A DNA stretch of 64,000 nt from Methanobacteriota archaeon (GTDB lineage: Archaea; Thermoplasmatota; E2; DHVEG-1). Below the pieces are notes generated by a model. That model was not told where the DNA came from. It was given only the letters and a program-made list of their open reading frames with translations, and searched no databases. The DNA lies in assembly GCA_963769885.1 (NCBI GenBank), contig CAVYNH010000007.1, positions 448,001 through 512,000 of the forward strand. Direction: 5' to 3'. Position 1 is the stretch's first letter. The number at the start of each line of letters is the position of its first letter. Made by a program: the position numbers and the translations under genes. Below, in pieces: positions 60,750 through 64,000 of the stretch.

Positions 60750-60877
60750 GCAGGGGTAGCCAAGCCTGGCCAACGGCGCAGGACTTAAGATCACAAGGGC
60801 TGAAACACAGCGGAAGGTTCGTTGGATGAGACATCCTGTCTCGCAGGAGTCCGAGGGTTCAAATCCCTTCCCCTGCA
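60750..60877 (+). tRNA. tRNA-Leu(TAA) with 43-nt intron (60790-60832) at position 37/38
   Basis: Acceptor GCAGGGG/CCCCTGC and anticodon TAA at 60786-60788. BHB motif: CTTA/TGAG helix with AGA and ACA bulges. Long variable arm. Confidence 0.95.
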
Positions 60878-60943
60878 CTCTTTCTTCCACAAGATAATTA
60901 TTAATACATGAAACAAGATTTATTGTTAGAGGGAGGAAGTAAA

Positions 60944-61813
60944 GTGCAGGAAAAACACAAAATCTTTGCAATACTTGCTACAACACTACTTCTCACAGTA
61001 TCGTGTTTGCCAACAATCTCTATGGCAACCCAAAACCACTCATCGGTCCAAGTGACCACTGAGGTATACGGTTTACAAAATGATAAACCGAAGACCGTCT
61101 CACTCACCGACGAACAATACCAGCAGTTCGAAGAGTACTGCACCAGCTTCCATACAAGACTCACACAGGCAACAACCCAAAAGGAAGTCACGCTCCTCTT
61201 CAAAGAAGCGGTCGGCGTCCTCCATAGCTACGACCTCCTCCCCGCAGGTATGACCCTCCCTCAGGCACAACGCATGGTTGAACGCCTTGCGCAAATCTCA
61301 CAACGACTAAACACTCGAGCAAACACCTACTACTCACAGACCGGCAACCACATCTGCCTCATTGCGGGGCACACCACGCAAACATGGTTTACCTCACCCC
61401 TTTATGCCTCCCTGTTAGTCCTCTTGTGGCTCATCCAAAAACACGACACTCTCGTCTTCCTCCTCTTTACCGCTATGATGATGGATGACCTCGTCGATCA
61501 ATTCATTCCCCTAGCTCCTTTCGATGCTATTAGTTTCGGTGAAGCATGGATGGATGGTTGGGAAGGACAATGGCACGACGCCTATTCCGAAGGCTGGGTC
61601 CATACCTTCGGATTTGGCGGCGCTCACGACTGGAACGGAACATTCAAAGGAGCGCTCACAATCGACATCCCCGGAGGCAGCCACCTCTACTCTGATCTCT
61701 ACCCAGGAGCCACCGGTTTTATCGGTATTAAAACCGAATCCCTGTACCGATCCTCCTTTTACCTCGGTCTTGCTCTCAACGTCCAACTTAACAATGTCAA
61801 TACTACACGCTGA
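60944..61813 (+). CDS. Secreted hypothetical protein (cassette 1 cargo)
   Basis: GGAGG precedes a GTG at 60944 (the ORF extends to 60908). Signal peptide and C-terminal GF.GI...FYLG.AL.V. Confidence 0.75.
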   Translation: MQEKHKIFAILATTLLLTVSCLPTISMATQNHSSVQVTTEVYGLQNDKPKTVSLTDEQYQQFEEYCTSFHTRLTQATTQKEVTLLFKEAVGVLHSYDLLPAGMTLPQAQRMVERLAQISQRLNTRANTYYSQTGNHICLIAGHTTQTWFTSPLYASLLVLLWLIQKHDTLVFLLFTAMMMDDLVDQFIPLAPFDAISFGEAWMDGWEGQWHDAYSEGWVHTFGFGGAHDWNGTFKGALTIDIPGGSHLYSDLYPGATGFIGIKTESLYRSSFYLGLALNVQLNNVNTTR

Positions 61814-61862
61814 AATCACAAAAAAAAACATGGCCTGTATTATTAACCTTACTTAGTTGATT

Positions 61863-61918
61863 GTCAATATTTGACGTACCGGTAAACTGGGGTTCAAATC
61901 CCTTCCCCTGCACTCTTT
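61863..61918 (+). repeat. att-like repeat 1: shared arm plus tRNA-Leu 3' end
   Basis: 61890-61918 is identical (29/29) to 60855-60883. Confidence 0.95.
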
Positions 61919-61981
61919 TTTACCTGAAAAAGGTTTAAATAACCAAGGGTAATCTATTTGCATATAGAGGGCGGGAAAGCA

Positions 61982-63127
61982 ATGATTGGAAATCCTATTG
62001 TTAGGAAACATTTGGCGGTTGGAATCATTCTCTTGTTTGTTGGGGCTTGTGTCGTTCCAGTGATTGCACAAGATCCTGAAAAACCACTACCGACATCAAG
62101 AGGCGATTGGGTATATGTTGGTGGGAGTGGACCTGGGAACTACTCAAAGATTCAGGATGCGATCAATAATTCTTCAAGTGGAGGCACCATTTACGTCTTT
62201 CATGGTACCTATCATGAGGCAATCACGATCACTGTTTGGAATCTGACGATAATCGGAGAAGGTAGAGACGTTACAATCATTGATGAGAACTGGACCGATG
62301 CCGCGGTGGTGATCGAAAAAAGTTGCGTGAGCCTCCGTGGGTTCACCATCACAGGGAAGAAGGACGGTATTTATGTTCATGGGGAATTAACCACCATAAC
62401 GGTTTCTGACAATAATTTTACACAAAATTACTGTGGCGTTGAGTTTCAATACGATTGGGATAACTATGATAATGTCATAGAGAACAATATTTTTTATTCA
62501 AATCACTGTGGGATTTATTTCGTAAGCGATCTCTGGTTCAATACCATTAGAAACAACTCATTCATCAATAATTTTGATGGTATGGAAATCAGTGGAAACA
62601 ATATCAGAGTACTGAATAACACATTTCTGAATTGTCAGGGGAGTGGCATTTCCCTTTATGGCGGACCATCGATGGTTGAAGGTAATATTTTTACTAAAAA
62701 TAACATGGGAGTATCTGGTGGTGGTCTGGAACAAACAATTTCTGGAAATCTATTTATTGAAAATGATATCGGTCTGAATCTTGGTGGCTCAGGACATACT
62801 ATCACTGGAAATGTCTTTGAGAATAATTCACTTGGCGTGAGAGTATCTGGTTCCAATACAAAGGTGAATCAAAACAATTTCATACAGAACGGCAAACACG
62901 CACAGTTTGCTGAAGAAAACCGATCGAATGGGAATAACTGGGACAACAATTATTGGAGCGATTCATTCCACTTTTTTGGTTACAAGTGCATTTTTGGGAA
63001 GATGCACACAAAAATACCAAGGCTTTTACAATTTGATCCATTCAGTACTACCTATTTTTGGATTGGATGGATCAACTTCGACAGGCATCCCGCACAAGAA
63101 CCCTATAGTATTCCAGAAATGAATTGA
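61982..63127 (+). CDS. Secreted NosD/CASH right-handed beta-helix protein (cassette 2 cargo)
   Basis: YVGGSGPGNYSKIQDAI, GTYHE, Asn-rich PbH1 repeats, NYWSD and FDRHPAQEPY. Confidence 0.85.
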   Translation: MIGNPIVRKHLAVGIILLFVGACVVPVIAQDPEKPLPTSRGDWVYVGGSGPGNYSKIQDAINNSSSGGTIYVFHGTYHEAITITVWNLTIIGEGRDVTIIDENWTDAAVVIEKSCVSLRGFTITGKKDGIYVHGELTTITVSDNNFTQNYCGVEFQYDWDNYDNVIENNIFYSNHCGIYFVSDLWFNTIRNNSFINNFDGMEISGNNIRVLNNTFLNCQGSGISLYGGPSMVEGNIFTKNNMGVSGGGLEQTISGNLFIENDIGLNLGGSGHTITGNVFENNSLGVRVSGSNTKVNQNNFIQNGKHAQFAEENRSNGNNWDNNYWSDSFHFFGYKCIFGKMHTKIPRLLQFDPFSTTYFWIGWINFDRHPAQEPYSIPEMN

Positions 63128-63140
63128 TTGATACTCATCC

Positions 63141-63190
63141 GTCAATCATCGTCGTGCCGTTAAACCAGGGTTCAAATCCCTTCCCTCTCA
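63141..63190 (+). repeat. att-like repeat 2
   Basis: GGGTTCAAATCCCTTCCC (18 nt identical to the tRNA), then diverged; the shared arm lies upstream. Confidence 0.9.
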
Positions 63191-63317
63191 TTTTTTTCCT
63201 GCGATGCATCCTGAGAACAGAAAACTTTAAATATGAAATGTTATATATACATAACATATTGTTATAGATAAATAATAAAATGTTATCACCAACACACATT
63301 GAAAAGAGGTGAAATGC

Positions 63318-63722
63318 ATGAAAGAAAAATTAGAAATGATCACGGGGCTGATAATAGTAATTGTCGTGTTCCTGACACTTCTCATCTATGCCATGAACAT
63401 CGGAATATTAGATATGGAAAAATTTGGATTATTTGTCATCGCCATTCTGCTAGTGTCGGCAGTCCTCTACATCCTCTGGGATCGAGCAAAAAACGTAAGA
63501 AAAGGACTGCCAGCGAAGGACGAACGGCTAATAAATATCACCTACAAGGCTGGACATAACGGATTTATCGCAGCAACACTCAGCAGCGTTTTCGCCCCAG
63601 TGCTCTCAAGCATTCTCCTCAATCGAGAACTCGAGGGCCACCATGTGACCAGCATCGTGGTTCTTGTTTCAGGCTTTGTCTTCATTGTATCATATTTGCT
63701 TCTGGCGAGGAGAGGGAAGTAG
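63318..63722 (+). CDS. DUF2178-like membrane protein (cassette 3 cargo)
   Basis: Four TM segments with a DER...I..KA motif, paired with an XRE HTH gene. Confidence 0.7.
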   Translation: MKEKLEMITGLIIVIVVFLTLLIYAMNIGILDMEKFGLFVIAILLVSAVLYILWDRAKNVRKGLPAKDERLINITYKAGHNGFIAATLSSVFAPVLSSILLNRELEGHHVTSIVVLVSGFVFIVSYLLLARRGK

Positions 63723-63725
63723 CCT

Positions 63726-63923
63726 ATGAAAACACGCATCAAGGAACTCCGGGCGCGATACGATCTCACCCAAGAGGACCTTGCGAAGAAAGTAGGAGTC
63801 CGACGAGAAACAATCCTCTTCATAGAGAAGGGAAACTACAATCCCTCACTCCAACTAGCCCACGATATCGCACAAGCCTTGCAGACAACCATCGATGACT
63901 TGTTTCTATTTGACGATAAATAA
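63726..63923 (+). CDS. XRE/Cro-family HTH transcriptional regulator
   Basis: [29 protein letters not shown]. Confidence 0.92.
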
Positions 63924-63936
63924 GAGAAGCGCCATC

Positions 63937-63986
63937 GTCACCTCTTGTCATGCTGAAAATCTGGGGGTCAAATCCTTTTCCTTGAG
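63937..63986 (+). repeat. att-like repeat 3 (most degenerate)
   Basis: GGGGTCAAATCCTTTTCCTTG aligns ungapped to the tRNA T-arm/acceptor, with the shared arm upstream. Confidence 0.75.
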
Positions 63987-64000
63987 CTTATCTATTTTTT

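Follow-up and report, generated by a model that had tools for sequence, protein, structure and literature searches.

The closest described parallels to the locus considered here are the cis-mobilizable elements (CIMEs) of the ICESt1/ICESt3 family, integrase-less inserts flanked by attachment (att) sites and found in tandem accretion (reviewed in PMC5704250), and the 'gene capture' reported for archaeal chromosomes (She et al. 2001, cited in PMC8371274). The locus belongs to a 64,000-nt stretch of DNA from an uncultured archaeon of the Thermoplasmatota (the window; contig CAVYNH010000007.1 of assembly GCA_963769885.1, or G000:C7:448001-512000, where G000 is the genome holding the window and G001 a congeneric sister genome), and consists of a tRNA-Leu(TAA) gene followed by three small gene cassettes, each closed by a 27-nt arm and by a copy of the tRNA 3' end, here called the core. 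The comparison of these sites with those of related genomes suggests that the arms are probably attP-type arms of a non-autonomous cassette family, which would be inserted at tRNA-Leu 3' ends and moved in trans by a recombinase. As in CIMEs and gene capture, att-flanked inserts without an integrase are stacked on one regenerated target and an integrase acting in trans is presumed, the att sites being present without genes for recombination or transfer. The units differ from both in their size (about 0.15-2.5 kb, mostly with one gene) and in their distribution, since every tRNA-Leu isoacceptor gene with the shared core has them and hundreds are spread over one family of uncultured archaea; unlike for CIMEs, no helper or other autonomous element with a cognate integrase using the same site was found in the genomes and loci searched.

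Growth from the tRNA-proximal side, partial tRNA copies between the inserts and adaptive accessory cargo are also known from the tycheposon islands of Prochlorococcus (10.1101/2020.12.28.424599). Tycheposons, however, carry a tyrosine recombinase and replication genes, with an integrase clade for each tRNA (10.1101/2020.12.28.424599), whereas the present units have neither and are defined by a short conserved arm. With integrons, including those of archaea (Ghaly et al. 2022, PMC9668308), the locus shares the arrangement of small cassettes in an array, most of them with a single gene and all ending in a conserved site of recombination type, and their exchange between related genomes. It differs from them in that the anchor is a tRNA 3' end and not attI, that no IntI-like gene lies beside the array (a tRNA-Gly gene and small open reading frames (ORFs) are found upstream), that the site is not a folded attC hairpin and that the cassettes appear to have their own promoters. 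The tRNA-Leu target is used in archaea by IntpTN3 of Thermococcus and by the pT26-2-related plasmids of Methanococcales as well, which are integrase-bearing plasmids, several of them of the SSV type with the att site inside the int ORF (PMC8371274). Neither Pfam nor profile searches detected an integrase gene inside the element, as there would be in classic tRNA-integrating elements, and, unlike in SSV-type proviruses, no integrase-like ORF of at least 130 aa reads through the Leu core, the lone SSV-type gene beside a tRNA-Leu gene belonging to tRNA-Gly. Some casposons integrate at tRNA-Leu genes; these elements possess a Cas1 casposase and terminal inverted repeats and generate a target duplication of 14-15 bp. 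The repeat described here measures 23-26 nt, and no terminal inverted repeats were seen on reading the cassette ends. Since the tests for an integrase within the element, for IntI and attI and for an attC hairpin failed, the locus was classed as a form of accretion at tRNA sites whose working resembles that of an integron, and not as a member of the integron family.

The anchor is a tRNA-Leu(TAA) gene with a long variable arm and an intron of 43-46 nt (60750-60877, on the plus strand like all other features of the array; Rfam RF00005, 39.8 bits), which was missed by ARAGORN with default settings and recovered by Rfam and by ARAGORN with introns allowed. Its last 23 nt (GGGTTCAAATCCCTTCCCCTGCA, 60855-60877), detected as an exact repeat in a genome-wide search and extending from the T stem and loop into the 3' acceptor strand, represent the putative attB-type core and recur at 61890, 63168 and 63964, once after each cassette. 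The tRNA itself is intact with three copies of its end downstream, the arrangement left by tRNA-integrating elements that regenerate their target. With reference to the last 22 nt of the tRNA (GGTTCAAATCCCTTCCCCTGCA), core copy 1 (61890-61912), which is followed by a T run, has no mismatch, copy 2 (63168-63190) has 3, all within the acceptor part, and copy 3 (63964-63986), the last recognisable joint, has 6, the number increasing with the distance from the tRNA. The core is common to all tRNA-Leu isoacceptors of G000 except UAG. Beyond core copy 3, and just outside the window, there is one further variable gene, of 239 aa, and then the conserved flank common with the sister genome.

Each core copy is directly preceded by one of the three arms (61863-61889, 63141-63167 and 63937-63963). 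In a preliminary description of the window, made from its letters alone, these had been aligned without gaps and their pairwise identities counted by hand as 19/27, 16/27 and 15/27; the recount gave identical values. In two controls, one with 200,000 triples drawn at random within the window and the other with 200,000 shufflings of the arms, no set attained the observed total of 50 identities, and the concern that the similarity might not stand out from shuffled controls did not hold. The last 14 nt of arm 1 (TACCGGTAAACTGG) equal the family consensus, weaker conservation extending upstream to about 61840, and relative to this proximal consensus arms 2 and 3 show 4 and 5 mismatches, so that arm 3 is the most decayed and the series 0, 4, 5 follows the distance from the tRNA.

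The same description had named decayed full-length tRNA copies as another explanation, in which the arms would be remnants of the anticodon and variable-arm region of duplicated tRNA-Leu genes. When compared with the equivalent tRNA segment (60828-60854), arm 3 matches at 14/27 positions, a value that fits such an origin, but arms 1 and 2 match at only 9/27 and 10/27, and the arms resemble each other more than they resemble the tRNA. The distal motif AYAGGAGTA, read from the consensus, differs from the tRNA 5' end GCAGGGGTA by transitions only; when aligned locally to the part of each tRNA-Leu body 5' of the T arm, the consensus arm nevertheless showed no significant similarity (p 0.22-0.95), and no tRNA was detected at the sites by Rfam, even at E<=1. 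Between the end of the cargo ORFs and the next core only 41-77 nt remain, and therefore there is no room for a tRNA body, and the same arm is found 5' of end copies of tRNA-Arg and tRNA-Ser. A tRNA-remnant origin is thus largely refuted and is regarded as highly improbable.

The consensus of the sites was found to reach about 50 nt upstream, reading TTTTA.AG.AGTAAT.AT.ATC.TGTCAATCATTATCrTACCGGTAAACTGG and then the core (164-175 sites). The pairwise identity among 164 sites amounts to 0.46 at positions -28 to -15 and to 0.35 at -55 to -29, compared with a background of 0.28; the pattern with which the collection loci were fetched contained the last 12 nt of the arm, and the identity farther out is an independent signal. 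A second motif, CAGGAGAAA, occurs in the same orientation on both sides of the core, at -50 to -31 in 58 of 256 sites and at +30 to +39 from the core start in 30 of 256, which is the layout of the arm-type sites in an attP. The consensus and the two-sided motif together provide the conservation on the element side that characterises attP arms. The motif CAGGAGAAA was also seen 3' of many cores, and in its longer form AYAGGAGTAAT (61840-61862 in the window, and in the consensus) the distal motif differs from the tRNA-Leu 5' end GCAGGGGTAGCC again by transitions only.

It had been suggested that the arm belongs to an attP- or attC-type site, with attention to the palindrome GTCAA-TAT-TTGAC of the first copy. 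The attP-arm kind is borne out by the above data, while an attC-like hairpin is not, as no covariation was observed. The sole candidate for a conserved fold, the stem CCGG/CTGG, pairs no better than shuffled columns (78.5% of cells are paired, the same value as the mean after shuffling), and the T-stem pair 52-62 cannot form in 17 of 43 sequences. The palindrome is present in copy 1 only and is not conserved, the family consensus at that place being the non-palindromic TGTCAATCATTATC. Related arm subfamilies hold a near-palindrome of 8-12 bp at the same place (TACCGGTA, TACATGTA, TACTAGTA, TAATATTA).

The profile scan proposed in the preliminary description revealed arm and core after the other tRNA-Leu genes of G000, in related genomes sampled from the family and in over 140 further loci. 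Nhmmer located nine full sites of arm and core in G000 at E<=1.5e-10, after tRNA-Leu TAA, CAG, GAG and CAA and in one orphan array; a search with the core only gave 14 non-tRNA cores, 7-8 of them with a TACCGGTAAAYTGG-type arm, two with the related TACAGGTA arm and two with a palindromic variant. Of 24 genomes sampled from the same family, 23 gave matches to arm and core with a covariance model built on sequence only (R1). The exact 24-nt pattern of arm plus T arm was found in 29 loci of metagenome-assembled genomes (MAGs), nearly all labelled Thermoplasmatota, and in at least 120 sediment and lake metagenome stretches; together the MAG and metagenome loci number 149 and contain 329 sites, as a rule several one after another on the same strand. 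Across 401 genomes sampled throughout the phylum, the strict pattern occurred in 12 of 54 genomes of this family and in 0 of 347 outside it. In the loci examined the sites always close short gene units of varied cargo, and the cassette-family reading of the preliminary description is supported.

A MAG labelled Bathyarchaeota contains a tRNA-Leu(CAG) gene followed by four cassettes, each closed by TTATATGTACCGGTAAAYTGG and a core, and these cores match the acceptor sequence of that host itself, from which it appears that the arm travels while the core adapts. In G000, the TACCGGTA or TACTAGTA arm is located also 5' of end copies of tRNA-Arg(GCG) and tRNA-Ser(GCT), and the arm is not tied to the identity of tRNA-Leu.

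The cargo of the three window cassettes is unrelated and the arm is independent of it. The body of cassette 1 (60878-61862; unit of 1.0 kb) contains an AT-rich TATA-like stretch and a 301-aa ORF (60908-61813), whose product has an N-terminal hydrophobic segment and no Pfam family in a Pfam scan. Cassette 2 (body 61913-63140; unit of 1.3 kb) opens with the promoter-like module AAAGGTTTAAATAACCAAGG, which follows many cores elsewhere, with a TATA box at 61934-61941, and encodes in a 381-aa ORF (61982-63127) a secreted NosD or right-handed beta-helix protein (Pfam NosD 1.4e-17, Beta_helix 3.2e-17), a member of the most numerous cargo family, with 72 ORFs from 54 loci. Cassette 3 (body 63191-63936; unit of 0.8 kb, with a TTTAAATA box at 63227-63234) includes two ORFs, one for a 134-aa membrane protein (63318-63722) with matches to DUF2178 and DUF6773 below the Pfam curated cut-offs, and the other for a 65-aa XRE-type HTH protein (63726-63923; Pfam HTH_3 4.2e-15); this gene pair was found again elsewhere in relatives. 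As read from the sequence, the units open with a T run and an AT-rich TATA-like box, TTTAAATA being present at 61934 and 63227.

Information on the movement of cassettes was obtained from a unit with a TM1586-type nitroreductase gene, for which G001 C1:449-1759 and G000 C4:200050-198743 are 93.3% identical over 1315 nt, against 72-86% identity in the flanking housekeeping DNA of the two genomes. This cassette is the first unit after tRNA-Leu(CAA) in G000 and follows arm and core in the tRNA-Leu(TAA)/uvr locus in G001, the homology beginning within the core and stopping just past the next core. The excess of identity, the different tRNA-Leu loci and the core-to-core limits indicate that cassettes move as units and that one of them has been relocated recently, and the limits fit the junction rule P(i+1)-core-P'(i) of serial tRNA insertion. 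The CAG and CAA loci of G000 and G001 hold different cassettes within conserved flanks. The nitroreductase cassette ends in a variant site with only TTCCCCTGCA in common with the tRNA. Core decay rises with the rank in the array (Spearman 0.46, p 0.035, 7 usable arrays), the correlation being weak. From four public runs compared with window positions 60600-64000, short Logan contigs only were recovered, which break at the repeats, and the joints in them are those of other tRNA-Leu genes or of paralogous cassettes of relatives.

These data bear on the idea that the units are scars of once-autonomous viruses or plasmids with related integrases of their own, deleted to about 1 kb, their arms being alike by kinship and nothing moving now. 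The presence of a 93%-identical cassette in two species, at different tRNA-Leu loci and with exact core-to-core limits, argues for a recent movement of the small unit itself; moreover, almost no integrase remnants accompany the 329 sites in the 149 loci, although integrase fragments do lie near sites in two of them (L127 and L135). The compactness of the units, with one or two genes and a promoter-like box of their own, and the existence of gene-less units of 60-150 nt likewise argue against deleted elements. On the other side, tandem accretion and decay at tRNA genes are well known (10.1101/2020.12.28.424599; PMC8371274), and the arms and cores of the window do decay with the distance from the tRNA. 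On balance, an origin of the units as scars is considered unlikely.

According to the interpretation that we favour and hold to be probable, that of attP-type arms on cassettes moved in trans, each 27-mer would be the proximal part of a cassette-side attachment-site arm (P arm) of about 50 nt, and the locus would read as tRNA-Leu followed by repeats composed of a P' end, the unit's own promoter, one gene or two, a P arm and a core. Circular cassettes carrying P arm, core and P' would recombine serially with the intact tRNA-Leu 3' end, every insertion restoring the tRNA and displacing the older cassettes outward. Because the cassettes encode no recombinase, the enzyme that would move them must come from elsewhere, the likeliest source being a rare helper element or an unrecognised chromosomal tyrosine integrase gene. 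The arm would be conserved since only cassettes that keep it stay mobile. The crossover probably takes place in or just 3' of TTCCCCTGCA, in the acceptor part, because some site variants have only that part in common with the tRNA.

The search for such an enzyme was carried out over all site-bearing loci by tblastn, phmmer and a custom hidden Markov model. PF00589 had no match in the window array, the nearest ones lying elsewhere in G000; no recombinase family was recognised by Pfam among 20 scanned ORFs of cassettes, and the clustering of 673 array ORFs gave no recurrent recombinase candidate. The Xer-like paralogues of G000 (C4:124360 and C6:676965) were rejected, the dyads surrounding them being unlike the arm, and relatives of two of the integrases followed (see below) were absent from the viral collection.

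Several results have to be set against the favoured interpretation. Among the ORFs of the site-bearing loci (about 0.9 Mb), only 6 tyrosine recombinases were detected with a profile made from 49 such enzymes, and none of them is placed for tRNA-Leu. Three integrase families that were followed serve other tRNAs: those of the L159 type sit at tRNA-Glu, tRNA-Arg and tRNA-Val, those of the L106 type are SSV-type integrases at tRNA-Pro, tRNA-Ala and tRNA-Gly, and those of the L191 type sit at tRNA-Ser and others, for which reason each was dismissed as the cognate enzyme. The Bathyarchaeota MAG has a single weak integrase match only. Direct signs of excision were not seen either: the arm pattern had no match in the viral collection, and no circular contigs occurred among the fetched loci. 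Arm decay with rank was not significant (Spearman 0.16, p 0.50, in the same 7 usable arrays). The conservation figure at -14 to -1 is partly circular because the loci were fetched with a pattern including that stretch. Furthermore, the core-to-core boundaries are equally compatible with homologous recombination inside the 23-nt core.

The last point leads to the proposal that cassettes are shuffled by homologous recombination between the repeated cores and arms, e.g. after DNA uptake, the arm being kept, for example, as a 3'-untranslated region or terminator module. The orientation of most cargo genes toward the arm and the T run after every core agree with this, but some cargo, such as the nitroreductase and PAS genes, is antisense to the arm, and no RNA or single-stranded DNA pairing signal exists in the arm, as seen from the shuffled columns and the broken T-stem pair. 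The tract of identity available to recombination is only about 23-26 nt. The window arm decays when distal, which is unexpected for an expression signal selected by the host, and in another phylum the arm stands before a core fitted to the tRNA of the host, which has the look of an attachment site that has adapted. The empty recombinase searches are accommodated by this proposal, which in view of the other data we nevertheless judge improbable.

The L106 integrase ORF (L106:2013-3042) begins antisense in a tRNA-Gly 3' fragment, its N-terminus being MRAPGIEPE, 16 nt upstream of tRNA-Leu(TAA); a provirus sits in the neighbouring tRNA-Gly and not in the Leu array. The last cassette joint of L191 is immediately followed by an element of 7 kb (L191:3192-10190), which encodes a small serine recombinase (Resolvase 2.1e-35) together with a tyrosine integrase and precedes chromosomal RPA genes; no recognisable core or attR was seen at its far end.

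To our knowledge, no gene-transfer vehicle is known for these uncultured archaea. A joint of 50 nt that bounds swappable one-gene modules could be used as a searchable marker of their accessory gene pool, consisting mostly of secreted beta-helix proteins, peptidases and small enzymes, and as a testable substrate for finding the recombinase. A tentative and more far-reaching possibility is that of a tRNA-anchored integron analogue in uncultured sediment archaea, in which an external recombinase would capture, stack and exchange promoter-bearing single-gene cassettes with a docking arm of about 50 nt and the core motif TACCGGTAAAYTGG at the 3' ends of tRNA-Leu and occasionally of tRNA-Ser or tRNA-Arg, and which might have crossed phyla from Thermoplasmatota to Bathyarchaeia by re-matching of the core. 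If a trans-acting enzyme exists, gene capture of the integron kind would have been invented independently on a tRNA end, and the compact attachment site might become an archaeal genetic tool; if there is no such enzyme, the arrays still preserve clearly how inserts accumulated one after another and decayed.

A number of minor observations were made on the joints and units. In a variant joint the T-arm part is replaced by a long inverted repeat, AGAGATTTGAAC-CTGAG-GTTTAAGTCTCT, with G-T wobbles, and only TTCCCCTGCA of the tRNA is kept; it occurs in G000 at C4:198747-198790 and C4:114720-114760 and in the loci L082, L171, L194 and L214. Gene-less units were noticed in G000 at C4:138546-138628 and C6:2845-2888. 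In one, tRNA-Met is followed by 60 nt, the arm-like stretch TCAGGAGAAAA and a second core of T arm and acceptor; in another, tRNA-Ser(CGA) is followed by 22 nt, TTTTTTACAAGTTTACTGT and a second core; and a comparable empty unit of 150 nt is present at L159:42-262. A second arm family, GGGATTTATACCCGTGGGTGCCA, stands 5' of end copies of tRNA-Glu and tRNA-Arg(CCG) (G000 C2:15003, C6:12004 and C4:139772). These two tRNAs are among the types flanked by integrases of the C4:132713 or L159 type in G000 and its relatives, so that the enzyme of this arm family may be identifiable. In G003, a closed genome, arm and core occur directly after purA and before a KaiC-like operon (L066:4585-8726), and in G014 the same operon follows the tRNA-Leu(TAA) array (L061:3360-8859), which suggests a chromosomal rearrangement with its breakpoint at a cassette joint.

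When introns were allowed, ARAGORN reported many 'tRNAs' in G000 with introns of 0.3-2.8 kb, which probably represent the 5' part of a tRNA joined to a distant copy of its 3' end. Directly upstream of the anchor lies tRNA-Gly(TCC) (60669-60745, plus strand; ARAGORN, and Rfam tRNA 62.1 bits), which is given for context only. Upstream of it lies a 61-aa ORF on the minus strand (60071-60256). Every related genome that was searched contains several DNA matches to it, of 68-80% (query positions 56-304), and it looks like a small multi-copy gene or element.

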